NCBI GenBank assembly: GCA_030697825.1
Contig: JAUYOW010000146.1
Span: forward strand, 5,978 to 69,977
DNA length: 64,000 nt
Source: Gemmatimonadales bacterium
GTDB lineage: Bacteria; Gemmatimonadota; Gemmatimonadetes; Gemmatimonadales; JACORV01
Reading direction: 5' to 3'
Positions within the stretch are counted from its first letter, which is position 1; every line of letters begins with the position of its first letter. Below are positions 12,166 through 64,000 of the stretch, piece by piece. The notes beneath the pieces are model-generated. The model worked only from the letters and a program-made list of their open reading frames with translations, was not told where the DNA came from and ran no database searches. The translations under genes and the position numbers were made by a program.

Positions 12166-12241
12166 GCTGACGTAGCTCAATCGGTAGAGCAGCTGATTTG
12201 TAATCAGCAGGTTAAGGGTTCGAGTCCCTTCGTCAGCTCCA
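12166..12241 (+). tRNA. tRNA-Thr (anticodon TGT), CCA encoded
   Basis: Cloverleaf folded by hand: acceptor gctgacg/cgtcagc, anticodon arm gctga-tttgtaa-tcagc, T arm aaggg-ttcgagt-ccctt. Confidence 0.9.
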
Positions 12242-12349
12242 GTTAGCCGGGAGGGAGCACGCAGCACCGCAGACCACGCCACCCCGCGTTTCGCGCCGCG
12301 GGGTGGTCTGTTCAGCGGACCAAAAGACGCCAGTGGGATGGGGCGCTGG

Positions 12350-12433
12350 GGTGGGGTGCCGGAGCGGTCAATCGGAGCAGACTGTAAATCTGCCGGCCTT
12401 GCGCCTACGAAGGTTCGAATCCTTCCCCCACCA
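12350..12433 (+). tRNA. tRNA-Tyr (anticodon GTA), long variable arm
   Basis: Acceptor ggtgggg/ccccacc, anticodon arm gcaga-ctgtaaa-tctgc, T arm gaagg-ttcgaat-ccttc. No encoded CCA. Confidence 0.9.
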
Positions 12434-12435
12434 CT

Positions 12436-12508
12436 GCGGGCGTAGCTCAGTTGGTAGAGCGTCAGCCTTCCAAGCTGAGGGTCGCGGGTTCGAGCCCCGT
12501 CGCCCGCT
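12436..12508 (+). tRNA. tRNA-Gly (anticodon TCC)
   Basis: Acceptor gcgggcg/cgcccgc, anticodon arm tcagc-cttccaa-gctga. Confidence 0.9.
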
Positions 12509-12509
12509 C

Positions 12510-12582
<73 letters not shown>

Positions 12583-15836: not shown

Positions 15837-20330
<4,494 letters not shown>

Positions 20331-20333
20331 CCG

Positions 20334-24608
<4,275 letters not shown>

Positions 24609-52406: not shown

Positions 52407-53690
52407 ATGTTCGGTGCGGGCACGCGCTGCCTCGTCGTGGTGGGGGCGCAGTGGGGCGACGAGGGCAAGGGCAAGGTCGTGGACGCGCTGGCCGAGCACG
52501 CCGATCTCGTGGTGCGCTATCAGGGAGGCGCCAACGCGGGGCACACGGTAGACGCGCCCGACGGCGAGTTCGTGCTGCACCAGATCCCCTCCGGCATCCT
52601 GCATCAGGCGACGAAGTGCGTGATCGGCAACGGGGTCGTCCTCGATCCCGAAACGCTGTTTCACGAGATCGACGCGCTCCGCGGGCGTGGCGTGACCGTC
52701 GAGGGCCGGTTGGTGGTCAGCGACCGCGCCCACCTGGTTCTCCCTTACCACAAGCTGCTCGACGCCGAGAGCGCGCGCAGCAAGAAGATCGGCACTACGG
52801 CCCGCGGCATCGGTCCGGCGTACGAGGATAAGTACGGGCGGCGCGGTGTCCGCGTCGGAGACCTGCGGCACCCCGAGATCGTGGCCAAGCTGGTGGAGGC
52901 CGGCGTCCAGCGCGCCAACGACCTGTTGGGGCTGGCGGGGTCGGTGAAGCGCTGCCACGCGGCGGAGATCGTCGCCATGCTGGCAGGTATGGCGCCCCGG
53001 CTGCTGCCGTTCGTGTCCGACGCGGGCAGGCTCGTGACGGACACCCTGAGGGATGGCGGCAACGTCCTGCTCGAGGGCGCGCAAGGCGCTCTCCTCGACG
53101 TGGACCACGGCACCTACCCGTTCGTGACCTCGTCGAGCACCACCGCCGGCGGCGCCGCGGTGGGCGCGGGCATCGGCCCCACGGCGATCGACGCCGTGCT
53201 CGGCGTCGTCAAGGCGTACACGACGCGCGTGGGCAACGGCCCGCTCCCGACCGAGGCGGAGGTGACCGAAGGCGAAAGGCTGCGCACGCTGGGCGGCGAG
53301 TACGGCGCGACTACCGGGCGCCCGCGCCGCTGCGGCTGGTTCGACGCGATGGTGGTGCGCTACTCGGTGCGCGTGAACGGCCTCACCGGGCTCGCGGTGA
53401 CCAAGCTCGACGTCCTCGATTCGTTCGAGCAGCTGTCCGTCTGCACGCACTACCGGCTCGGCGGCGAAACGCTGGACGACCTGCCTGACAACGTCGCGGC
53501 GCTCGCGGAAGTGGAACCGGTGTATGAGCTCCTTCCCGGCTGGCGCCAGCCGACCGGCGAGGCCCGCACGCTCGCCGCCCTTCCCCGGGAGGCCCGCGCC
53601 TACCTCGACCGCCTCGAGGCGCTGGCAGGCGCCCCCATCCGCTACGTGGGCGTGGGCACCAAGCGCGAGCAGCTGATCGAAGTGCAGTGA
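52407..53690 (+). CDS. purA: adenylosuccinate synthase
   Basis: ATG at 52407 after gaggagga. ..VVGAQWGDEGKGKVVD.. and ..GGANAGHTV.. Confidence 0.96.
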   Translation: MFGAGTRCLVVVGAQWGDEGKGKVVDALAEHADLVVRYQGGANAGHTVDAPDGEFVLHQIPSGILHQATKCVIGNGVVLDPETLFHEIDALRGRGVTVEGRLVVSDRAHLVLPYHKLLDAESARSKKIGTTARGIGPAYEDKYGRRGVRVGDLRHPEIVAKLVEAGVQRANDLLGLAGSVKRCHAAEIVAMLAGMAPRLLPFVSDAGRLVTDTLRDGGNVLLEGAQGALLDVDHGTYPFVTSSSTTAGGAAVGAGIGPTAIDAVLGVVKAYTTRVGNGPLPTEAEVTEGERLRTLGGEYGATTGRPRRCGWFDAMVVRYSVRVNGLTGLAVTKLDVLDSFEQLSVCTHYRLGGETLDDLPDNVAALAEVEPVYELLPGWRQPTGEARTLAALPREARAYLDRLEALAGAPIRYVGVGTKREQLIEVQ

Positions 53691-56212
53691 GGGTGCTCTT
53701 GAAGGTGCTGTCGGGAGTCGCCGCGGTCCTCGTCGTCGTGGCCGTGGTGGTCTCGTTGGTTCTCTTCCGCTCGATACCTCCCCTGGACGGCAAAGAGTCG
53801 TTGCCGGCGCTCTGCGCGCCGGTCGAGGTGCTCTGGGACAGCCTCGGCATCCCGCACCTCACGGCAGCGTCGGACGCGGACGCGCTGAAGGCGCTCGGAT
53901 ACCTCCACGCGCGCGATCGGCTGTGGCAGATGGAGACCCTCCGCCGCACCGCCGAGGGGCGGCTGGCCGAAGTGCTGGGACCCGCCGCCCTCGGCCTCGA
54001 CCGGTTCCTGCGCTCGCTCGACATCCCGCGCGCCGCGGCCGCGAGCCTGGGCACGATAGCGCCCGAGGCCCGGGCGCTCGCCGAAGCCTACGTGGCGGGC
54101 GTGAACCAGTGGATCTCCCACCACACGCGGCCACTTCCTCTCGAGTTCCAGCTCTTGCGCTTCGCCCCGGAGCCGTGGACGATGCAGCAGGTGGTCGAGG
54201 TGGCACGGGTGATGTCGTGGGACCTGGTGAGCGCGCGGCTCGAGCTGAACCTCGCGCGGGCGGCGGCGCGCCTGGGCCCGGAACGGGCGCGCGACCTGGT
54301 CCCGCTGTACCCGGACAGCGCGCCGGTCATCCTGGCGCCGGGGACTGCTACGTGGAAAGACGGGCGGCAGACGCGCAGACGCGCAGACGCGCAGTCGGTG
54401 GGCGGGCGGCAGTATTCGGTTGAACGGCAGTGGCTCCCGAGCCACCTGCTCGCCGAGCGGGAGGTCCCGGAGATACCGCCGTTGGCGGCGGAAGTTCTCG
54501 ACGCGGTGACCATGACGCGGGCGTCGAACTCCTGGGTGATCGGATCGTCGCGCTCGCGCTCGGGCAAGCCCATCCTGGCCAACGACCCGCACCTCCGGCT
54601 CAGCGCGCCTTCGCTGTGGTACCTCGCGGTCATCGAGAGCCCTCGCCTGCACGTCGCCGGCGCCACGATCCCCGGCCTGCCGGCCGTGATCATCGGGCAC
54701 AACCGGCGCATCGCCTGGGGGCTCACCAACGGGTCGGTGGACGACGTGGACTACGTGATCGAGCGGCTCTCGGCGGACTCCTCTCGCGTGCTCACGCCTG
54801 ACGGGTGGGCGCCGGTGGAGGTGGTCCGGGACTCGATCCGGGTTCGCGGTCGTCAGGCGGTCCCGTTCACGCTGCGGCGCACGGCGCACGGCCCGATCGT
54901 GGACGAGGCCGCGCCCGACTCGGGCTGGACCCACGCGCCGTCGGACAGCGCCGCGCCCGTGACCGTGCTCGCGATGCGCTGGAACGGGCAGGACCCGAGC
55001 GACGAGCTCACGGCGCTGATCGGCGTGGACCGCGCGGGTTCGTGGACCGACTTCCTCGCCGCCGTCTCCGGGTTCAAATCGCCCGAGCAGAACTGGATCT
55101 ACGCCGACGTGGACGGCAACATCGGGTACACCGCGAGCGGCGCGGTGCCGGTTCGGCGGTCGGGGGTCGGTCTCCTCCCGACACCGGGCTGGACCGACGA
55201 GGGGAGGTGGGAGCGGTACCTGGACTTCGACGAGCTGCCCCGCGCGTTCAATCCGCCCGATGGTTTCATCGTCACCGCGAACAACCGGGTGATAGGCCCC
55301 GAGTACCCGCACTTCCTGGCGCAGGACTGGGACCTCGGCTACCGGGCGGCACGAATCCGGGAGATGCTCGTACCGGGCGGTCCTTTCACCGCCCTGGACG
55401 TTGGACGCATGCAGCTGGACACGGTGGACGTCTTCGCGCGATGGGCCAGGCGCCTAGCCGCGGACGCCGCGGCGACCGCGGGCCGGCAGGACCTGGCTGA
55501 GCGGCTGCGCGCGTGGGACGGCACGATGGGATCCGACCGGACGGAGCCGACGCTCTTCTACGTCTGGTACCGGGATCTCCAGCGCCTTACGTACGAGGAC
55601 GAACTCGGTGGCTATGCGCCTTCGGGGCCACTGCACCGGTGGTTGCGCGCGGGCGGAAGCCCGTGGTTCGACGACATCAGGACGCCCGAACGCGAGGACC
55701 TGGCGGCGCTTTCCGCCCGCGCGATGCGCGAAGCGCTGCCGGTAGCCGAGGGTGTGAAATGGGGCGACGCGCACGTCACCGTGTCACAACACGCCCTCGG
55801 CGGCTTCGGGCCTCTCAACCGCCTGCTCGGCCTGAACCTCGGGCCGGCGCCGCGCGCCGGGTCGCTCTACACCGTGGATGTCGCCGACTTCGGTTCCTTC
55901 GCGCCGCCGTTCGTGAACACCCATGCGGCATCGTTCCGGCAGGTCGTGGATCTGGCGGACGTGGAGGCCGGGCGGATGATCGCGACCACGGGACAGTCGG
56001 GTAACCCGCTGGCGCGGCGATATCGCGACCAGAGCCGGCGGTGGTGGCGGGGGGAGTTGTGGGAGGTGCCGCTGGACCGCGAGCGGGTGGCGGCCGTCGG
56101 CACCCTGCATCTGACACCGCTGTCGCTATCCGCCCTATCCGCTCTATCCGTCTATGGTGTCACTCCCTCCGCGGCGCGCTCCACCAGCTGCGTCTCGACT
56201 AGCCGGCGGTAG
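53687..56212 (+). CDS. penicillin acylase family Ntn-hydrolase (possible acyl-homoserine-lactone/beta-lactam acylase)
   Basis: Signal/TM N-terminus, ..GYLHARDRLWQME.., and the nucleophile context ..TRASNSWVIG.. The last ~20 codons cross a 9-bp tandem repeat and overlap the convergent ABC gene, so the true C-terminus is uncertain. Confidence 0.85.
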   Translation: MRVLLKVLSGVAAVLVVVAVVVSLVLFRSIPPLDGKESLPALCAPVEVLWDSLGIPHLTAASDADALKALGYLHARDRLWQMETLRRTAEGRLAEVLGPAALGLDRFLRSLDIPRAAAASLGTIAPEARALAEAYVAGVNQWISHHTRPLPLEFQLLRFAPEPWTMQQVVEVARVMSWDLVSARLELNLARAAARLGPERARDLVPLYPDSAPVILAPGTATWKDGRQTRRRADAQSVGGRQYSVERQWLPSHLLAEREVPEIPPLAAEVLDAVTMTRASNSWVIGSSRSRSGKPILANDPHLRLSAPSLWYLAVIESPRLHVAGATIPGLPAVIIGHNRRIAWGLTNGSVDDVDYVIERLSADSSRVLTPDGWAPVEVVRDSIRVRGRQAVPFTLRRTAHGPIVDEAAPDSGWTHAPSDSAAPVTVLAMRWNGQDPSDELTALIGVDRAGSWTDFLAAVSGFKSPEQNWIYADVDGNIGYTASGAVPVRRSGVGLLPTPGWTDEGRWERYLDFDELPRAFNPPDGFIVTANNRVIGPEYPHFLAQDWDLGYRAARIREMLVPGGPFTALDVGRMQLDTVDVFARWARRLAADAAATAGRQDLAERLRAWDGTMGSDRTEPTLFYVWYRDLQRLTYEDELGGYAPSGPLHRWLRAGGSPWFDDIRTPEREDLAALSARAMREALPVAEGVKWGDAHVTVSQHALGGFGPLNRLLGLNLGPAPRAGSLYTVDVADFGSFAPPFVNTHAASFRQVVDLADVEAGRMIATTGQSGNPLARRYRDQSRRWWRGELWEVPLDRERVAAVGTLHLTPLSLSALSALSVYGVTPSAARSTSCVSTSRR
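56126..56157 (+). repeat. 3.5 copies of a 9-bp tandem repeat (CTATCCGNC)
   Basis: ctatcc occurs at 56126, 56135 and 56144, and ctatgg at 56152. The array sits at the junction of convergent genes, and the last unit contains the ABC-transporter stop codon. Confidence 0.7.
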
Positions 56213-57921
56213 ACCGCGCTGGTCTCGAGCAGTTCCGCATGCCGGCCGGCGGCCGCAATGCCGCCGCCGTCGAGCACGGCGATCCGGTCGGCCGCGAGCA
56301 CGGTGCTGAGCCGGTGGGCGATGATCAGGGTGATGCCGTCCGGGCGCCCGTAGCGCAAGCCTTCGGCGACCGACCGCTCGGTGGGGCTGTCGAGCGCGCT
56401 GGTCGCTTCGTCGAGAATGAGGATCTGAGGCCGCGTCACGATCGCCCGCGCCAGAGCGAGACGTTGCCTCTGGCCGGCCGAGAGCTTCCCGCCGCGCGGT
56501 CCGACGCGGGTGCGGTAGCCGTCGGGTAGGGAGTGAATGAGCTCGTCCAGTCGGGCCGTCTGCGCGGCCTTCGCGACCGCGGGCGACGGGAGGTCACGGC
56601 CCAGCGAGATGTTCCAGTCGACCGGCTCGTCGAAGACGAAGCAGTCCTCGAACACGACGCCCAGGTTCCGCGCGAGCGACGCCCGCGCCACGCGATCCAG
56701 CGGCACACCGTCTACCAGAATCCTGCCCGACTGCGGGGCCCGCAGGCGGACGAGCAGCTGCGCCAGCGTGCTCTTGCCCGACCCGCTGGCTCCCACCACC
56801 GCGACCACCTCACCGCGCCGGAGCTCGAGATCCAGGCCCCGGAGCACCGGCTCGCCCCCGGCATACCGGAACCCAACCTGCTCCACGCTGATCCGCTCCA
56901 CCGGTGAATCCACCGCTTCGGACCCGTCGCGCTCGCCCGACGCGCGATCGCCCAGGAAGGCGAAGACGTTGAGCGTCGCACCCTCCTGCTCGGCCAGCGC
57001 CGACGCCGCCTCGGTGATGGCGCCGAACTGACCCTGGAGGCGGCGCAGCACGAACCCGAGGGCGAGGACCAGCGGCAGATTCCCGAACAGTTGATCCTGC
57101 CAAACGTTGAGCGCCACCAGCAGCGCGCCCAGGAGCACCACCGCGTAGAGCACTTCGGTCGCGGGCTTCACCGCGCTGCGCCAGCGGTGCAGGCCCATCG
57201 CTTCGCGATAGAGCGTCTGGTTCGTGCGGCGGTGGAGCGCCAACCGCTCCCGGCCGACGTCGTAGGCCTGGATCACGTGGAGCCCAGCGGCATCGTCGAG
57301 CACCAGCCGGCTCGAGTCCTCTTCCGCACGCACCATGAGCACCGAGTAGGCTCGAATCCGGCGGCCCGCGTAGGCGATGACACCGAAGCCGATCGCTCCG
57401 AGGACCGCCGCGGCCAGGCTCAGCCGCCACGACAGCAGCACGAGGGCCCCGCCGTAGACCGCCAGCAGCAGCGCGGCGTTCAGCAGCGCCACGAGCGCGG
57501 AGACCCCGGCGACCACCCGCTCGGTCTGCATCGAGAACAGGTTCACGAGCCTCCCCCCGCCGAGGACGGCCAGGTCCGCGTAGCGGGAGGCGTAGAACGC
57601 CTCCGCCAGTGACTCCCGGAGACGAAGGAGCACGCGCAGCTGGAGCCGGGCCGAGAGGACGCCGTTCAGGTAGCAAGCCGCGGCGCGGAGCAGGACGAGC
57701 GCGCCGATCGCGAGGACGATGAGCTGGAGTCTCTGCTCCGATCCTCGCTCGAAGGACTCGAGGAAGGGAACGAGCAGCGTGACCGAGGCCCCTTCGAGCA
57801 GGACGAGCGCCAGCGAAGTGCCGGCGACCGTCGCCGCGGGCCGCTTGAAGCCCCGGAGCGAGGTGATCACCTCTCGAACGTCTTTCCACCGGGAAGCCAG
57901 ACGCTGCGGCAGTCTCATCAC
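56152..57921 (-). CDS. ABC transporter, fused permease/ATPase (lasso peptide exporter candidate, McjD-like role)
   Basis: Six-TM exporter domain. Walker A GASGSGKST, signature LSAGQRQRLALARA, Walker B ILILDEATSALD. The start overlaps the stop of the upstream kinase gene. Confidence 0.9.
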   Translation of the reverse strand: MMRLPQRLASRWKDVREVITSLRGFKRPAATVAGTSLALVLLEGASVTLLVPFLESFERGSEQRLQLIVLAIGALVLLRAAACYLNGVLSARLQLRVLLRLRESLAEAFYASRYADLAVLGGGRLVNLFSMQTERVVAGVSALVALLNAALLLAVYGGALVLLSWRLSLAAAVLGAIGFGVIAYAGRRIRAYSVLMVRAEEDSSRLVLDDAAGLHVIQAYDVGRERLALHRRTNQTLYREAMGLHRWRSAVKPATEVLYAVVLLGALLVALNVWQDQLFGNLPLVLALGFVLRRLQGQFGAITEAASALAEQEGATLNVFAFLGDRASGERDGSEAVDSPVERISVEQVGFRYAGGEPVLRGLDLELRRGEVVAVVGASGSGKSTLAQLLVRLRAPQSGRILVDGVPLDRVARASLARNLGVVFEDCFVFDEPVDWNISLGRDLPSPAVAKAAQTARLDELIHSLPDGYRTRVGPRGGKLSAGQRQRLALARAIVTRPQILILDEATSALDSPTERSVAEGLRYGRPDGITLIIAHRLSTVLAADRIAVLDGGGIAAAGRHAELLETSAVYRRLVETQLVERAAEGVTP

Positions 57922-58865
57922 GAAAGGTCGGCCAGCACGGCCTCGCAGACGGCGGGGAGCAGGGACAGGCTCCGAGGGTAGCTCAGGCGCTTGACCGGCA
58001 CCGCGGCCACCAGCCGGCTGGCGAACGCGAACTGGTTAGCGAGACGGTCCCGGTCCACCACGATCGTATTGAACGAATTCCGGATCACCTCGAGAAACGC
58101 GTCGCGGGCAGAGAGCCGTTCCAGCTCAATGCGCGCTGCCGGGCGGCGACCCGCGGGCGTCGGCTCGGAGAGGACGTAGAGCGCCCGGAGCGGCGCCCGG
58201 CGACGGGACAGCTGCCCGGCGGCGAGGGGGAAAATCTGCTTGGACGTGCCGTTGTTCAACGGTGTCCCGCCCCGCTCAACGCCCAGCACTCGTCGCGAGA
58301 CGCTCGGGAAGAGCTTGAGCCGGGGCATCCCCGGGTGGACCGCATAGCCCGAGGCCGTCGGCTCGAGCGCCATCAGATCGTCGGTGAGGATCGGGAACCC
58401 CAGGCGCAGGAACGCCGCTCCCAGGGTGGATTTCCCGTACCCGCAGTTCCCGAGAAACGCGATCGCCTCTCCGTCGATGACGACGACCGTCCCGTGCAGC
58501 GGCTCCACGCCGAATAGGAGCAGCGAGAACGACAGCACCTGGCCGAGGAGGTACGTGCTGAAGGATTCCGGGGTGGCTCGCTTAAGCTGATGGTACCTGA
58601 TGTCGCGGCCGTCCGCCGAGACCAGGAACTCGAACAGCCCGGTCCACCGCAGGTACGTCGAACCGGTGCGGAGACGGCGGCAGTAGAACCAGTCGCGGCT
58701 CGGCCGGTCGGTGGTTTCCCGCCGAGCAATTCCCTCGAAGCGGGCCGGTTCCCCGACCCGGAGCCTCACATCCGGTCGCCGCGCCCGCTGAACCCGAGGG
58801 CACGGGAGGACGAGAGGGCTCACGAGCGAGAGCCCGTAGAGCCGATAATGCGCTGTCGACCTCAA
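57918..58865 (-). CDS. HPr kinase-like serine kinase (lasso-peptide tailoring kinase candidate)
   Basis: P-loop FLGNCGYGKSTLGAAF followed by PILTDDL, as in the HprK/P C-terminal domain. The TTG start overlaps the precursor stop (TTGA). Confidence 0.75.
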   Translation of the reverse strand: MRSTAHYRLYGLSLVSPLVLPCPRVQRARRPDVRLRVGEPARFEGIARRETTDRPSRDWFYCRRLRTGSTYLRWTGLFEFLVSADGRDIRYHQLKRATPESFSTYLLGQVLSFSLLLFGVEPLHGTVVVIDGEAIAFLGNCGYGKSTLGAAFLRLGFPILTDDLMALEPTASGYAVHPGMPRLKLFPSVSRRVLGVERGGTPLNNGTSKQIFPLAAGQLSRRRAPLRALYVLSEPTPAGRRPAARIELERLSARDAFLEVIRNSFNTIVVDRDRLANQFAFASRLVAAVPVKRLSYPRSLSLLPAVCEAVLADLS

Positions 58866-59038
58866 GCGTTAGTGCCGCTGGCCTTGGTCTTCGGCTTCCC
58901 ACCACCACCGTCGGCCGCGCTGCCGCCCTTAACTCTTGTCAGCGCGCTGATGTCGCCATGCACGGTAAGTTCCGGTGAACGATACGGCTTCTTTTTCCCG
59001 GTGCTCCGCTGGGACTGGCCTTTCTTCCCCTTGTTCAT
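58862..59038 (-). CDS. lasso peptide precursor (58 aa), not in the ORF track
   Basis: Codon-by-codon hand translation gives MNKGKKGQSQRSTGKKKPYRSPELTVHGDISALTRVKGGSAADGGGGKPKTKASGTNA. Residues 19-35 match the lasso leader motif YxxPxLx3Gx5Tx. ATGA overlap with the cyclase stop and TTGA overlap with the kinase start. Confidence 0.8.
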   Translation of the reverse strand: MNKGKKGQSQRSTGKKKPYRSPELTVHGDISALTRVKGGSAADGGGGKPKTKASGTNA

Positions 59039-60993
59039 ACAGTGCTCTCCGAGAGAGGGGTTGGGGGCCGGGCCGGAATTGCGCGCTCCCCGCCCAAGAA
59101 TACCTCAAGCCACACTTCCAAGGCAAACAGATCGGTGAGATCCCAGGTGCCGAGGCAGTCCGGACCCTCGAGCTCCGCGGCGAGGCCGGGAAGCGCGGCC
59201 GCCAGCCGACGCTCGTCAAGGTACCCCAGGCGAGCCGCCAACGAGCCTTGCGACAGCCGAGCGCAGACCTGCCCCAGGTCCCGGCCAATCCCACTGTTCG
59301 CGGCGGCCGTGAAGTCTGCCTTCCACGTTCGAGCGCGCAGCGGCTCGGGGAGGATGCCCCCCATCGCTTCCCGCAGCAGCGCCCGGGGAACGCCGTCCCG
59401 GTTCTGGATTTCTCCCGGCGCAGCCATGAGGAACGCGATGAGGTCACGATCCAGGAACGGGAAGGCCGCGTCCAGCCCGTGCAGCGCGGCGATCTTGTTG
59501 TTCCACTCCATGCAGTGCACGTGATACTTGGACCGGGCTTCCAGATACAGCGATCTCGCGTGGACGGAGTGGAAGCCGTCTCCGAACCACACGGGGCGGT
59601 TTGCGAACCTGAGCGCCCGGCGGCGGAAGGAATCCGAGAACCACGGCCTGGGTCGCTCCGGGCGGGAGATCATTCGGCGCAGCCACTTGAACAGCGGGGC
59701 CGCCGCACGCGGGACATAGTGCCGGGCGACATCGAGCACGAGCCGCCGCCTGAGCACCAGCGTCTCTTCCGGCCCGAAGAACCGCTGGTAGGTCCGGGTG
59801 TGTCGCTGGATCTGTCCGAAATCCAGCCGCCGGAAGAGATCCGCCAGATACGCGGCCGAAAACAGCATCTGGTCGCCCCAGTGCCCCGAGAGCAGCACCC
59901 GCGCGCCGGCCTCTCGGGCCCGAACATGTACTTCGCGGGTCACTCCCCAGAAGTAGTCCATAAAGGGCGCCTCGATGGCCCGCACCTGGTCCTCGGCGCC
60001 CCGGACCACACCGAGCAGAGGCTCGATGGGAATTCGCCCGACCGATACGCCGTACGCCTGCTCGATCTCACGCAGAAAACGCTGCTCGTCGGCCGCGGTG
60101 CCCTCGGCGCCCACGTAGGATATCCCGATCACGCCGGGAGCCGCGGCCCGTCCAGCGCGCCGAAGGGTTTCCGCCTGGCAGAAGATGGAGGATGAATCCA
60201 GGCCCCCGCTCACCGAAACGGCCACCGGGTGAACGGCACGCGTCCGACGCCGCACCGCTTCCGCGAACCGCTCGCGGAATGCTTCGGCGTATTCGCCGAA
60301 CGAGTTCAGGCGGAGCGTGCGGCCCCGGTCGAAATCCCAGTACCGCCGGGCCATCAACCGTTCGGGCGTCACTACGACGAGATGCGCCGGCACGACCGCG
60401 GAGATGCCCGTGAAGCAGGTGATGTCCTGGCGATCGACCGGCCGCGAAGCCAGGAGCAGGTAGTCGGCGAGGCCCTCGTCGTCGGGACGCGCCGGTATCT
60501 CCGGGTGCGCCAGCAACGCCTTGATTTCGGAGGCGAACGCACCCAGCCGGTCGCTGCGGAAGTAGTAGAGGGGGCGAACTCCGATCGGGTCGCGCACCAG
60601 TAGCAGGCGTCGCTGTCGCTCGTCGAAGACCGCCAGCGCGAAATCGCCGTTCAAGCGTCCGGGGAACCGCTCCCCCCAAGCCTCGTACGCCGCGAGCACG
60701 CACGCGGCGTCGCTGACCGTCGGGGGCAGTCGCAGCGCGCCAAGCAGCTCGTCGCGATTGTCGAGCCGGCCGTCCATGACCAGCATGGCGCCGCTGCGAC
60801 CCACGGGCGGCTGGACCTCGCCGGTCTCCTCGGGGGTCACCCACAGGTGCTGCCACGCGAAGCCAGCCGGGCCGGCCACCCGCCGGCCCTCGCCGTCGGG
60901 CCCGCGGTGGCGGAGCGCGGCACTCATGCGGGCCAGCAGCGCATCCTCCGCCGGCCGCGCATCGAGGTTGAACACTCCGACGATTCCGCTCAT
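59035..60993 (-). CDS. asparagine synthetase-like lasso peptide cyclase (C protein)
   Basis: The N-terminus is MSGIVG, with Ser replacing the glutaminase Cys of AsnB. PP-loop SVSGGLDSSS. 652 aa. Cluster context. Confidence 0.85.
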   Translation of the reverse strand: MSGIVGVFNLDARPAEDALLARMSAALRHRGPDGEGRRVAGPAGFAWQHLWVTPEETGEVQPPVGRSGAMLVMDGRLDNRDELLGALRLPPTVSDAACVLAAYEAWGERFPGRLNGDFALAVFDERQRRLLLVRDPIGVRPLYYFRSDRLGAFASEIKALLAHPEIPARPDDEGLADYLLLASRPVDRQDITCFTGISAVVPAHLVVVTPERLMARRYWDFDRGRTLRLNSFGEYAEAFRERFAEAVRRRTRAVHPVAVSVSGGLDSSSIFCQAETLRRAGRAAAPGVIGISYVGAEGTAADEQRFLREIEQAYGVSVGRIPIEPLLGVVRGAEDQVRAIEAPFMDYFWGVTREVHVRAREAGARVLLSGHWGDQMLFSAAYLADLFRRLDFGQIQRHTRTYQRFFGPEETLVLRRRLVLDVARHYVPRAAAPLFKWLRRMISRPERPRPWFSDSFRRRALRFANRPVWFGDGFHSVHARSLYLEARSKYHVHCMEWNNKIAALHGLDAAFPFLDRDLIAFLMAAPGEIQNRDGVPRALLREAMGGILPEPLRARTWKADFTAAANSGIGRDLGQVCARLSQGSLAARLGYLDERRLAAALPGLAAELEGPDCLGTWDLTDLFALEVWLEVFLGGERAIPARPPTPLSESTV

Positions 60994-61009
60994 AGATTAC
61001 ATTATAACA
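60994..61009 (-). promoter_or_regulatory. extended -10 promoter (TGTTATAAT) placed to give a leaderless cyclase mRNA; AT-rich divergent control region
   Basis: The minus strand reads tgt-TATAAT-gtaatct-ATG, so the -10 box ends 7 nt before the ATG at 60993. The surrounding 60994-61014 is conspicuously AT-rich in a GC-rich genome. A TATAAC on the + strand (61003-61008) faces the PqqD-like gene. Confidence 0.4.
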
Positions 61010-61039
61010 GATACTCCGACGCGCGAGCCAAGAGCCTCT

Positions 61040-61351
61040 ATGACTGCCCGCAACATTCCGGACTCGGCCACCGTCGTCGCGGCCGGGGACCTGCTCGCCA
61101 GCGAATTCGGCGCCGAGCTGGTGATCCTCAACCTGCGGGACGGCGTGTACTACGGGATGGAGGACGTCGGCGCGCGCGTCTGGAGCCTCTTGCAACGACC
61201 CGTCACGGTCTCCGCCATCCGCGAGACGCTGGTCGCGGAATACGACGTCGAGCCGGCCCGCTGCGGGCGGGACGTGCGGGCACTGCTCCAGGATCTGGCC
61301 GCGCGCGCCCTGATCGAGGTCCGGGAGAGCGGTGATGGCGCTGTGGCGTAA
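61040..61351 (+). CDS. PqqD-family RiPP recognition element (lasso B1 protein)
   Basis: ATG at 61040 inside track ORF 60758..61351. ..GAELVILNLRDGVYYGMEDVGARVWSLLQRPVTVSAIRETLVAEYDV.. is the typical PqqD pattern. Confidence 0.85.
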   Translation: MTARNIPDSATVVAAGDLLASEFGAELVILNLRDGVYYGMEDVGARVWSLLQRPVTVSAIRETLVAEYDVEPARCGRDVRALLQDLAARALIEVRESGDGAVA

Positions 61352-61799
61352 GCTTCGCACCCTGAGCGCCGCCGACCGCCGCCTCCTCGCGGAAGCGGGG
61401 CTGCTGCTCGTGCTCACCCGGATCGGGCTCTGGCTCCTTCCCTACCCGAAGCTCCGGCGAGTGCTGGACCGGGCCCACCCTTCGGGGCGGGAACCGCCCC
61501 GCGAGTTCCCCAATCGCGTCTCCTGGGCGGTCACCGCCGTCGCGCGCAGGCTTCCGGGAATGACCTGCCTGGTTCAGAGTCTCACCGCACACGCCCTGCT
61601 GCACCGCCGGGGATATCGCGCCGATCTGCGCATCGGCGTCCATGAGCGCGCCAGCCACGCCGCGAGACCCCTCGAGGCCCATGCCTGGGTCGAGTGTGAG
61701 GGCCGCGTCGTGGTGGGGAAGGTCCAGAACCTGGCCGACTACACGGTTCTGACCCCGACCGCGCCGCCAGCTTCTCCCGCCACGCCAGACCCCTCATGA
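61335..61799 (+). CDS. transglutaminase-like lasso leader peptidase (B2 protein)
   Basis: Catalytic Cys context PGMTCLVQSLTAHALL and His context LEAHAWVECEG. It overlaps the B1 3' end (GTG 61332 is an alternative start). Confidence 0.85.
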   Translation: MALWRKLRTLSAADRRLLAEAGLLLVLTRIGLWLLPYPKLRRVLDRAHPSGREPPREFPNRVSWAVTAVARRLPGMTCLVQSLTAHALLHRRGYRADLRIGVHERASHAARPLEAHAWVECEGRVVVGKVQNLADYTVLTPTAPPASPATPDPS

Positions 61800-62935
61800 C
61801 CGCGGTGCTGCCCGCACACCTGGCCGACGGTCTCGCGGCGGTGCTCCGCGGCGAACGGGTCTCCTGGCGCTCGCTCGGCGTGGAACCGGCCGATCTGCTC
61901 GCGGTCTGTGCCGAGGAAGATCTCACCGGCCTGGTGCATCATCAGCTGGGCAACCTACCGGAAATCGGCTGGCCGCAGAGCCTCCGCGACAGCCTGACGC
62001 GCGAAGCCCGAGCGGGAGCGACGCGGGAGCTCCTCCGTCGCAGAGAACTGGTCACGGTGCTCGACGCCCTCGCGGCGCGAGATATCCACCCGATCCTGCT
62101 GAAGGGCACGCCGCTCGCGTACACGGTCTACGAGGCCCCGAGCCTCCGGCCCCGCAGCGACACCGACCTTCTGATATCGCGGGAGCAGACCGATACCGTC
62201 CGCCGCGTCATGACTGGGATCGGCTACTCGGCCACGAACTACTGCGACGGCGAGTTCCTGTTTTGCCAGTTTGAGCTTGGAAAAGAGGACGCGTTCGGCG
62301 TCGGTCACGCCTTCGATTTCCACTGGAAGATCAGCACCCAGTCCGCCTTCGCCGATCTCCTCAGCTATGACGAGCTCTCAGGTGACGCGACGCCCGTCCC
62401 CGCGCTCGGCGCCCACGCGCGCACCGCCGGAGCCGTCCACGCGCTGCTCCTGGCCTGCGTTCATCCGGTGATGCACCACCGAAACGTCGAGCGGCTCGTC
62501 TGGATCTACGACATCCACCTGCTCGCTGCACGGCTCTCGCGCGCCGAGTTCGACCGCCTCGCGGAGCTGGCAGTGCGCAAGGGCGTCGCCGCGATCTGTG
62601 CGCACCAGTTGGCGCTCGCCCGCTCGCGGCTCGGCACCCCCGTGCCCGACGAGGTGATCGCCGCCCTTGCCGCGCCCGGGCGTGAGGCCGAGCGATCGGC
62701 TTCCTACCTGGAGCCTGAGCGGCGGTGGAACGACGAGCTCCTGTCGAATGTCCGGGGATTGCCCCGCTGGACCGATCGCCTCCGCCTGTTGAAGGAAGTC
62801 GCGTTTCCCGCGCCAGGCTACATGCTCCGGGCCTACGGGTTGGACGGAGCCGCCTTCGGAAGCGCCCTGCTCCCCGCCCTCTACGTCCACCGCGGCGTGC
62901 GGGGCATCTGGAAAGTGTTGCGCAACCGCAAATAG
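61796..62935 (+). CDS. uncharacterised nucleotidyltransferase family protein (NTP_transf_5-like)
   Basis: ..PILLKGTPLAYTVYEAPSLRPRSDTDLLISREQTDTVRRVMTGIGY.. matches my memory of this family. ATGA overlap with B2. Confidence 0.7.
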   Translation: MTAVLPAHLADGLAAVLRGERVSWRSLGVEPADLLAVCAEEDLTGLVHHQLGNLPEIGWPQSLRDSLTREARAGATRELLRRRELVTVLDALAARDIHPILLKGTPLAYTVYEAPSLRPRSDTDLLISREQTDTVRRVMTGIGYSATNYCDGEFLFCQFELGKEDAFGVGHAFDFHWKISTQSAFADLLSYDELSGDATPVPALGAHARTAGAVHALLLACVHPVMHHRNVERLVWIYDIHLLAARLSRAEFDRLAELAVRKGVAAICAHQLALARSRLGTPVPDEVIAALAAPGREAERSASYLEPERRWNDELLSNVRGLPRWTDRLRLLKEVAFPAPGYMLRAYGLDGAAFGSALLPALYVHRGVRGIWKVLRNRK

Positions 62936-63109
62936 CCCTGCCCGGCGAGCCCGCTCGCCGACCCGGTCGATTGCCGCCGCGACCGTGACAAAACCCGCTA
63001 TTCCCGGTCATAGAGGCGATGGGCATGCGATCGTGTCTTTCGGGCTGATCCTCGGCGAACGTCCTTGGCCCGAATAGTTGGAACGGCACCAGTGGAGAAA
63101 CTCCGAATC

Positions 63110-63132
63110 GGCGCCGGTTCAGCGCCGGCGCC
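63110..63132. terminator. GC hairpin downstream of the BY-kinase gene
   Basis: 8-bp stem ggcgccgg / ccggcgcc with a 7-nt loop, 8 nt beyond the stop at 63140-63142. Confidence 0.35.
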
Positions 63133-63139
63133 CGCCGTG

Positions 63140-64000
63140 CTAGAAGAGGTGGGCGATCCGCTCGCGGAGGGCCGACAGCGGCCCGCGGCCCGTGGGCTGG
63201 TCCTTGCGGTAGTAGTAGTTGTAGTACTGGTCGCGCGTCTGCTGCACGCCGTTCAAGACCGAGCCGGCGACGCGGGCCTGGACGCGGCGCAACTGGCCGA
63301 GCGCGCGCTGGGCGGCGACCTCCTCCGTCTCGCCGGAGCGCAGGACCAGGATGACGGCGTCGGCCGAGGCGCCGAGCACGGCCGCGTCGGTCACGGCGAG
63401 CGTGGGCGGCAAGTCGAAGATCACCGTGTCATACTGGGTGCGCAGTTGCTCCAGGAGGCGGTGCATCGCCGCCGAGCCGAGCAGCTCCGACGGGTTCGGC
63501 GGCAGCGTGCCGGCCGGCAGGATATCGAGCTTCGGGATCACGTTGGGCCTGATGGCCTCGCGCAGCTGCGCGTTGCCGACCAGCACGTCCGTGAGCCCCG
63601 GCTCCTGCACCAGGTTGAAGGCGCGGTGAATCTGGGGACGGCGCAGGTCCGCGTCCACCAGGAGCGTCGTGGTGCCTTGCTGCGCGAGCGTGACCGCCAG
63701 GTTCGCCGCGGTCGTGCTCTTTCCCTCGCCCGGTCCCGGGCTGGTGGCACAGATGAGCTGTAGCGCCCGCTGTTCGGCATTCACGAAGGTGACGTTGGTG
63801 CGGAGCGCCCGGTAAGCCTCGCTGGACGGATCGTCGGGGCTGGCCAGCGACACCAGGTGGATCGCGCCTCGGCGTCGACCGTCCTTGCGGAGGCCACCGG
63901 CCGAGCGTGTCTCGAGCGGGATCAGGCCGAGGACCGGTATCTCCAGCGCGCGCTCGACGTCCGCCGCGGTCTTGATCGTCTGGTCCAGGTACTCGAGGAA
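63140..64000 (-). CDS. polysaccharide-biosynthesis tyrosine autokinase (BY-kinase / Wzc C-terminal domain), partial; N-terminal part lies beyond the right window edge
   Basis: Walker A SPGPGEGKST, Walker A' LLVDADLRRP, Walker B VIFDLPP, C-terminal Tyr cluster DQYYNYYYRKD. The frame stays open upstream of the track's GTG (63853) to position 64000 (..FLEYLDQTIKTAADVERALEIPVLGLIP..). Confidence 0.9.
   Translation of the reverse strand, partial: FLEYLDQTIKTAADVERALEIPVLGLIPLETRSAGGLRKDGRRRGAIHLVSLASPDDPSSEAYRALRTNVTFVNAEQRALQLICATSPGPGEGKSTTAANLAVTLAQQGTTTLLVDADLRRPQIHRAFNLVQEPGLTDVLVGNAQLREAIRPNVIPKLDILPAGTLPPNPSELLGSAAMHRLLEQLRTQYDTVIFDLPPTLAVTDAAVLGASADAVILVLRSGETEEVAAQRALGQLRRVQARVAGSVLNGVQQTRDQYYNYYYRKDQPTGRGPLSALRERIAHLF

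Follow-up and report, generated by a model that had tools for sequence, protein, structure and literature searches.

A probable kinase- and nucleotidyltransferase-associated lasso peptide gene cluster in an uncultured soil Gemmatimonadales bacterium

Introduction

The window analysed here, a stretch of 64,000 nucleotides from a Gemmatimonadales bacterium (GenBank assembly GCA_030697825.1, contig JAUYOW010000146.1, positions 5,978 to 69,977), contains at positions 56152-62935 seven adjacent genes that resemble those required to make, tailor and export a lasso peptide, a small, knotted peptide of the kind that is made on ribosomes and modified after translation (RiPP). The locus raises two questions: whether these genes constitute an intact unit for the production of such a peptide and, if they do, which residue of the peptide could be the target of the kinase encoded next to it. 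We estimate, with a probability of about 0.8, that the locus is an intact set of biosynthetic genes by which an uncultured soil Gemmatimonadales makes and tailors a ribosomal peptide of the lasso type. Lasso clusters decorated by a kinase and a nucleotidyltransferase are a known type; what is different here is the peptide, which is without either of the residues known to be phosphorylated in such systems. Gene identities, catalytic motifs, precursor conservation and leader spacing were established in this analysis and are described first.

Gene content and operon structure

The initial annotation of this DNA had proposed a lasso RiPP function for seven adjacent genes in two divergent, translationally coupled operons. 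All of the proposed open reading frames (ORFs) are present and intact, with catalytic residues conserved, and the proposal is supported by the gene families, by the leader of the precursor and by the junctions between the genes. The features of the locus are as follows (aa, amino acids; nt, nucleotides).

59035-60993, minus strand: C, lasso macrolactam synthetase (cyclase), 652 aa, asparagine synthetase fold
58862-59038, minus strand: A, precursor peptide, 58 aa, stop codon at 58862-58864
58934-59038, minus strand: predicted leader of A, residues 1-35
58865-58933, minus strand: predicted core of A, residues 36-58, VKGGSAADGGGGKPKTKASGTNA
57918-58865, minus strand: K, HprK-like lasso precursor kinase, 315 aa, TTG start
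56152-57921, minus strand: D, ATP-binding cassette (ABC) exporter with fused permease and ATPase, 589 aa
60994-61039, no strand: AT-rich divergent spacer of 46 nt, presumed site of both promoters
61040-61351, plus strand: B1, PqqD-like leader-recognition protein (RiPP recognition element, RRE), 103 aa
61335-61799, plus strand: B2, transglutaminase-like Cys leader peptidase, 154 aa from ATG (a GTG start at 61332, giving 155 aa, is also possible)
61796-62935, plus strand: N, tailoring enzyme with PF14907 nucleotidyltransferase fold, 379 aa

The junctions were taken from direct reading of the sequence, in which the overlaps of 1-20 nt claimed for each operon are all found. On the minus strand, C and A overlap by ATGA, A and K by TTGA, and K and D by GTGA, each of 4 nt (the last is reduced to 1 nt if ATG 57918 is the start of D). 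On the plus strand, B1 and B2 overlap by 20 nt, or by 17 nt from ATG 61335, and B2 and N overlap by the 4 nt of ATGA. The two operons are only 46 nt apart. Ribosome-binding sites are seen at two genes only, GGAG about 8 nt 5' of the precursor ATG and GGGAG 7 nt 5' of the B2 ATG at 61335; the genes with no visible site depend on overlap coupling. A longer ORF at 60758-61351, with its first in-frame TTG at 60758, was considered as B1 and rejected as an artefact of ORF calling, the start at ATG 61040 being fixed by the sequence and by orthologues.

The core enzymes of lasso formation

The Pfam matches that had been expected for the six enzymes were obtained above threshold for five of them, the match of the kinase being weak and below threshold. 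The cyclase matches Asn_synthase (PF00733) at 5.8e-39 and GATase_7 at 4.4e-24 and has a PP-loop in VSVSGGLDSS. Taken by itself, this large gene could be read as a housekeeping asparagine synthetase lying beside unrelated genes, in a locus that has nothing to do with RiPPs: the Asn_synthase and GATase domains are there, and public records label the protein "asparagine synthase". The N-terminus of the protein is MSGIVGVF, with MSG instead of MCG, i.e., the nucleophilic Cys is replaced by Ser. In the HMMER alignment, Arg49, Asn74 and Glu76 of Escherichia coli AsnB (1ct9), which we take to be the glutamine site of the AsnB crystal structure, stand opposite His, Asp and Arg. The AsnB equivalog model TIGR01536 gives 227.6 bits, under its cut-off of 267.1, and the top NCBIfam match is a lasso cyclase model, NF033535 (lass_lactam_cya), at 354 bits against a cut-off of 525. 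Because the Cys and the glutamine-site residues are replaced and the score falls below the AsnB cut-off, the protein is not a working glutamine-dependent asparagine synthetase, in keeping with the AsnB-like cyclase of the initial annotation. The model scores and the degenerate glutaminase site rule out this identity, and every related locus of sufficient length has B1, B2, K and a precursor of the lasso type linked to the gene. A housekeeping origin is therefore hardly credible.

The assignment of 61335-61799 to lasso B2 peptidases is borne out by the NCBI lasso B2 model NF033537, which the protein passes with 105.5 bits (cut-off 33), and by the Pfam match to Transglut_core3 (PF13471) at 5.2e-26. 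B1 matches PqqD (PF05402) at 8.4e-18, with 64.9 bits against a cut-off of 23.4, and scores 65.5 bits with the lasso PqqD chaperone model NF033536, under its cut-off of 80. A neighbour-joining tree built without bootstrap groups B2 of the window and its relatives with B2 proteins of kinase-encoding clusters from Bradymonadales, Sphingomonadales and Firmicutes, apart from those of actinobacteria, in agreement with a published suggestion of a common ancestor (PMC10368454). The exporter D matches ABC_tran at 4.1e-31 and ABC_membrane at 1.8e-12.

Related loci

The cyclase shows 100% identity to a protein of a Gemmatimonadales metagenome-assembled genome. Nine loci came from a scan of genomes and belong to Gemmatimonadales, Gemmatimonadota, Acidobacteriota, Terriglobia and Pyrinomonadaceae; 80 further loci, out of at least 185, came from metagenomes scanned with the kinase alignment as seed. 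The same gene set, together with a small ORF, is present in nine genome loci and in about 60 metagenome loci, and this recurrence places the association of the genes far beyond chance. Mapping with tblastn revealed two main layouts, a divergent one, N-B2-B1 <> C-A-K(-D), in the closest clade, which includes the window, and a colinear one, B1-B2-C-A-K-N, in many other loci. With ABC matches of less than 38% identity discarded, an orthologue of D after K was detected in the closest relatives only (L001-L003 and L010-L012). One metagenomic locus, L057, appears to carry two opposed copies of K, C, B1 and N homologues (C- B1- K- N- K+ C+ B1- N-) and may represent two adjacent clusters of the window type.

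A search of 1.84 billion cluster representatives with a precursor profile gave 1,499 matches at E <= 0.001; at 50% identity the family thus comprises about 1,500 clusters of precursors, which makes it a very large one in soil metagenomes. It is abundant in Gemmatimonadota and Acidobacteriota, which are dominant and poorly cultured soil phyla. In the literature searched, lasso biosynthetic gene clusters (BGCs) of Gemmatimonadota were found in survey-level mentions only, and neither a characterised member of the window precursor family nor a characterised lasso peptide from Gemmatimonadota or Acidobacteriota was found.

The precursor peptide and its predicted core

The small ORF that accompanies the enzymes lies between or beside C and K and carries, in about 70 loci, the leader-region motif KKP-Y-x-x-P-x-L-x-V-[HY]-G-D-[IL]-x-x-L-T-x. 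The expectation that a small ORF would be conserved in syntenic clusters of relatives has thus been borne out at these loci. Among database proteins, 14 small ORFs have the same motif. In codon comparisons, the synonymous values (0.44-0.92) exceed the non-synonymous ones (0.20-0.37) in 14 of 14 pairs, and the small ORF is, by this measure, under purifying selection.

These data bear on the possibility that we are dealing with a remnant, silent or in decay, that has no product. Related clusters have been silent in heterologous hosts, an observation with nothing specific to the window locus, whereas here seven ORFs are intact with their catalytic residues, the small ORF appears to be kept by selection, the coupling overlaps are retained and the family is widespread. 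We consider a remnant very unlikely and continue with the reading of the locus as an intact lasso-type cluster.

With 20.3 bits, the 58-aa product of the window ORF clears the cut-off of 19 set for the NCBIfam lasso leader model NF033521, and it comes just short of the cut-off of NF033528 (lasso_cyano), with 29.1 bits against 33; the latter match comprises only the leader and the first five residues of the core. To place the cleavage site, we used the leader spacing that was applied to define the BsfA core. With cleavage after Arg35, Tyr19 is at -17, Pro22 at -14, Leu24 at -12 and Thr34 at -2. Homology to four known systems (Pade, Thco, Psm and Bsf) is the basis on which this cleavage and a ring formed by Val1 and Asp8 are predicted. 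The predicted core, VKGGSAADGGGGKPKTKASGTNA, has Asp at position 8, Gly at position 3, and hydroxyl residues Ser5, Thr16 (Thr51 of the precursor), Ser19 and Thr21; it is rich in Gly and Lys, cationic and devoid of an aromatic plug, and its C-terminus reads GTNA, with Ala as the last residue. The initial annotation had regarded the product as not predictable from known members, which holds for the tailoring chemistry; the ring and the core can be predicted from leader spacing.

A second copy of the precursor was looked for within the window and was not found. Elsewhere in the family, four loci (L008, L010, L012 and L013) have two separate precursor genes adjoining the cyclase and the kinase, and a single ORF of 133 aa (P0343) contains two tandem leader and core units. 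A metagenomic protein from outside the window, P0300 (382 aa), has five tandem lasso-leader-like units, each with PYxxPxLxDHG.....T followed by an acidic core-like stretch, and at its C-terminus a Peptidase_S74 "chaperone of endosialidase" domain (PF13884, 59.7 bits, residues 276-328). It is unusual for RiPP-like cassettes in repeated form to be joined, as in P0300, to a chaperone domain that cleaves itself.

The kinase

The kinase matches Pfam Hpr_kinase_C only weakly (E=0.0077, 16.2 bits, below the gathering score of 33.3) and NCBIfam HprK_rel_A at 1.2e-8 (34.5 bits, cut-off 200), and a PDB sequence search gave only marginal matches to HPr kinase and dephospho-CoA kinase. Since general kinase models barely detect the protein, it was compared with characterised lasso kinases. 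The catalytic cores of PadeK, ThcoK, BaceK, PapoK, SyanK, PsmK and BsfK were aligned in a published supplement, and it was shown by mutagenesis that H148, G163, K169, S170, D186 and D187 matter for the activity of BsfK (PMC10368454). The BsfK catalytic pattern H-x14-G-x2-G-x-G-K-S-x15-D-D is present in the window kinase with identical spacing (H124, G139, G142, G144, K145, S146, D162 and D163), and these residues are invariant or nearly so in ten orthologues. In BLASTP, the protein has 36-41% ungapped identity over 81-94 aa to the core fragments of five Firmicutes kinases (PapoK, BaceK, PsmK, ThcoK and PadeK) and a shorter match to BsfK, 54 aa at 46%. By homology, we infer that the kinase of the cluster phosphorylates a peptide.

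The nucleotidyltransferase-fold enzyme

N matches Pfam NTP_transf_5 (PF14907) at 6.8e-38 over the full domain; a PDB sequence search with N gave no match. An AlphaFold2 model of N built with 39 homologues has a mean predicted local distance difference test score (pLDDT) of 90.4 and a predicted template modelling score (pTM) of 0.89. In a Foldseek search with this model, the closest solved folds are MenT1 (template modelling score, TM, 0.70, normalised to the target) and ANT(2'')-Ia (5cfs and 4xje). The latter two structures are the templates that Zyubko et al. gave for PsmN of the pseudomycoidin cluster, an enzyme required for the attachment of one or two hexoses to the phosphate of the peptide and inactive as a D134A/D136A double mutant (PMC6993621). 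N is thus like PsmN in its structural neighbours and in its DxD motif, D122/D124 in the window lying at a position similar to that of D134/D136 in PsmN. Residues K103-G104, D122-x-D124 and D174 are invariant across the 39 homologues, and from conservation alone we infer that N would decorate the phosphate.

In the clade of N, six proteins of 450-537 aa (P0144, P0175, P0183, P0191, P0221 and P0234) are fusions of B2 with N (PF13471 with PF14907). Such fusions are known from reviews in Firmicutes clusters, and as natural proteins they argue for a physical partnership of the peptidase and the nucleotidyltransferase.

Where could the peptide be phosphorylated?

In the paeninodin type, as in SyanA, phosphorylation by the kinase precedes cleavage and takes place on the C-terminal Ser of the precursor while this is still linear; according to reviews, this Ser is the only acceptor and the one feature common to these precursors. 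The characterised kinase-type precursors that we compared all end in Ser (6 of 6). BsfK of Bradymonas sediminis FA350 phosphorylates Ser3 instead (PMC10368454); it acts internally since BsfA has no C-terminal Ser. To see what the window family offers, we analysed two sets of predicted cores, 81 distinct cores from kinase-linked loci and 147 independent cluster representatives; the counts in them were as follows.

Acceptor Asp or Glu at position 8: 64 of 81 kinase-linked cores; 117 of 147 representatives
C-terminal Ser: 0 of 81; 15 of 147, near the Ser background of 7.7%
Tail motif [ST][KRH]: 73 of 81, mostly 7-8 residues past the acceptor; 129 of 147, 87 of them at +7
No aromatic residue: 69 of 81; 119 of 147

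Of the residues in the 81 cores, 23.5% are Gly and 13.1% are Lys. The two known sites do not apply here: phosphorylation of a C-terminal Ser, as in the paeninodin model, is rejected because Ala is the last residue of the precursor and the C-termini of the family show no enrichment of Ser, and phosphorylation of Ser3, as in the Bsf model, is rejected for this member because its position 3 is Gly. Across the family, position 3 is mostly Gly or Lys.

The sole hydroxyl residue of the core that is conserved across the family is the tail Thr or Ser before a basic residue, in P-x-T-[KR], and for this reason we take it as the likeliest acceptor. In the window this residue is Thr16 (Thr51), which we put forward as a tentative candidate, at somewhat less than even odds. 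The alternative is that the cluster is the same and its kinase has another target, a Ser or Thr of the ring, Ser19 or Thr21, or a residue of the leader, in which case P-x-T-[KR] would serve threading, export or target binding. BsfK does act on a ring residue, Ser5 is available in the window core with Thr, Ser or Asn at position 5 in many relatives, and the A-S-G at positions 18-20 is also conserved in the closest clade. Yet position 3 of the window core is Gly, position 5 and Ser19 vary across the family, many cores stop 1-3 residues past T-[KR] and so have no equivalent of Ser19, and no hydroxyl residue of the core other than the tail Thr/Ser is conserved. Another target is possible, and we hold it to be doubtful. 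The phosphorylation site of the window family, as judged from the cores, is probably new.

Comparison with known lasso systems

The closest overall counterpart is the pseudomycoidin cluster of Bacillus pseudomycoides DSM 12442, with the order psmC-A-K-B1-B2-N-D (PMC6993621). The initial annotation had regarded the order with the precursor after the cyclase as uncharacterised; this has to be given up, as the same order is found in the psm cluster, with one block inverted. The two clusters share the inventory of C, A, HprK-like K, split B1 and B2, PF14907-type N and ABC protein D, as well as the C-A-K and B1-B2-N blocks, and the core of the window kinase is 36% identical to PsmK over 83 aa. Unlike in the psm cluster, the B1-B2-N block of the window is inverted and divergently transcribed and D follows K. 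The peptides differ as well: the C-terminal Ser of PsmA is phosphorylated and then hexosylated, whereas the window precursor ends in Ala, and PsmA has an Ala1-Glu9 ring with an acidic tail containing aromatic residues, whereas a Val1-Asp8 ring with a cationic Gly/Lys tail is predicted here. The hosts are Firmicutes in one case and Gemmatimonadota in the other.

With paeninodin-type systems (PadeA/K, ThcoA/K, BaceA/K and PapoA/K, and proteobacterial SyanA/K) the cluster shares an HprK homologue with the His/P-loop/Asp-Asp motif, the window kinase being 37-41% identical to the paeninodin-type core fragments. The claim that the cluster belongs to the established kinase-type class therefore stands, and the stricter assignment to the paeninodin type does not, the C-terminal Ser acceptor being absent from the window core and from the 81 linked cores. 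Some paeninodin-type clusters have no N, whereas the window has one. Of the features that define paeninodin and pseudomycoidin clusters, then, the locus has the kinase motif and a PF14907 gene after B2, the latter a feature of pseudomycoidin only, and does not have the C-terminal phospho-Ser.

The bsf cluster resembles the window in having both K and N with a precursor that has no C-terminal Ser, in the Y(-17)/P(-14)/L(-12) spacing, in a ring from residue 1 to Asp8 and in the spacing of the kinase catalytic motif. In contrast to BsfA, with Ser3 and Ile at -2, the window has Gly3 and Thr at -2, so that neither the Ser/Thr at core position 3 nor the Ile/Val at -2 that define Bsf precursors is found; the kinase similarity is also shorter and B2 lies in a separate branch. 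The best specific models for the window precursor (NF033528) and cyclase (NF033535) are those of the predicted cyanobacterial lasso family of NCBIfam, but both scores are under their cut-offs and that family is itself only predicted.

The genes and the precursor features expected of split-B lasso systems are present, i.e., a macrolactam synthetase, B2, a PqqD-like B1 and a YxxPxL...T(-2) precursor with Asp or Glu at positions 7-9. The window family keeps the machinery but departs from each characterised subtype in a defining feature, as neither known acceptor is present.

Proposed pathway and topology of the product

A pathway can be outlined in which the order of the steps, like the cleavage site and the ring, is taken by homology from the four systems named above. 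The 58-aa precursor would be translated from the strongest ribosome-binding site of the cluster, and B1 would bind the leader motif Y(-17)xxP(-14)xL(-12) and help K and B2. The HprK-like kinase would phosphorylate the still-linear precursor, before cleavage, at the candidate residue Thr51 (core Thr16). B2 would cleave after Arg35, the first residue past the conserved leader Thr, and the cyclase would activate Asp8 with ATP and join it to the amine of Val1, which would close a ring of 8 residues and leave a tail of 15; without further modification, the product would have a monoisotopic mass of 1997.03. N would then decorate the phosphate, with hexose if it is PsmN-like, and the ABC protein would export the product.

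Several observations weigh against this interpretation. The sequence comes from a metagenome-assembled genome, and the cluster is known here from sequence alone. With the most specific NCBIfam or Pfam models, the cyclase, B1 and the kinase do not reach the curated cut-offs, and Val at core position 1 is not among the characterised precursors compared. The placement of the phosphate on Thr16 is based on conservation alone, and ring positions 3-7, often Ser, Thr or Asn, may contain the target in this member. The chemistry of PsmN was observed in E. coli only and is itself not settled. No product was obtained when the bsf cluster and two lasso clusters from soil metagenomes were placed in heterologous hosts. 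Finally, aromatic and other bulky residues that could hold a threaded tail in place are absent from the core, and because of this the product is possibly not a true lasso.

The last point leads to a further alternative, in which the product is a branched-cyclic, unthreaded lariat or is threaded only once the phosphate or sugar is installed. Such a product would fit the cores without aromatic residues, which prevail in both sets, and their high content of Gly. Lys or Arg beside the conserved Thr, on the other hand, might suffice to lock an 8-membered ring, and topology is not readable from sequence. A precedent exists in pseudomycoidin, which is unthreaded when made without PsmK and PsmN and for which Zyubko et al. 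proposed that bulky phospho-sugar modifications at the C-terminus serve as a lock (PMC6993621). We treat an unthreaded product as a possibility of lesser weight and retain the lasso-type peptide as the preferred reading.

A more far-reaching proposal would be that the peptides form a soil-wide, plug-less, cationic Gly/Lys-rich family in which the kinase acts on an invariant tail Thr 7-8 residues past the ring Asp, N adds a sugar or a nucleotide, and the added group locks the tail. We consider this proposal as a whole rather unlikely; if true, it would amount to a third lasso-kinase regiochemistry and to an upkeep of lasso topology that depends on post-translational modification. If the chemistry outlined above is right, there would be at least three regiospecificities of lasso kinases, for C-terminal Ser, ring Ser3 and mid-tail Thr, and the function of PF14907 "N" enzymes would become approachable in a family with thousands of natural variants. 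As a BGC call, the locus is routine: standard BGC tools would very probably flag it, by itself it opens no long-standing question, and its value hinges on experiments.

The divergent spacer and neighbouring genes

The spacer at 60994-61039 may serve as the promoter region. It contains a TATAAT that ends 7 nt 5' of the cyclase ATG, at which there is no Shine-Dalgarno sequence, and TAATAT is found at the equivalent position in five relatives (L001, L003, L010, L012 and L013), which suggests that the mRNA of the cyclase operon may be leaderless. A scan of 55900-63300 for consensus sigma-70 promoters found no full promoter, and terminator-like sites in the same interval were no more frequent than at chance level.

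Two flanking genes were considered as members of the cluster and rejected. The penicillin amidase ORF at 53687-56212 (plus strand) and the CpsD-like P-loop protein at 63140-63853 (minus strand) adjoin the cluster in L001 and L003, its closest Gemmatimonadales relatives, and in tblastn mapping neither was found in more distant loci with the same cluster; being common to the nearest relatives only, they are placed outside it. The amidase ORF matches Pfam Penicil_amidase at 7.7e-208 and converges with the ABC exporter ORF, the two overlapping by 61 nt (56152-56212); its final ~39 residues lie beyond the Pfam domain match. The gene at 63140-63853, which adjoins N, is CpsD/BY-kinase-like, with matches to AAA_31 (2.3e-17), ParA and CbiA, and probably marks the start of an exopolysaccharide locus.

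An Rfam scan of the whole window returned four tRNAs and nothing else, a tRNA-Thr/Tyr/Gly/Thr cluster at 12166-12582. It is followed, at 15837-24608, by two large ORFs whose lengths, 1497 and 1424 aa, would fit rpoB and rpoC. If they are these genes, the lasso cluster, some 31 kb away from them, is located in a core region of the chromosome.

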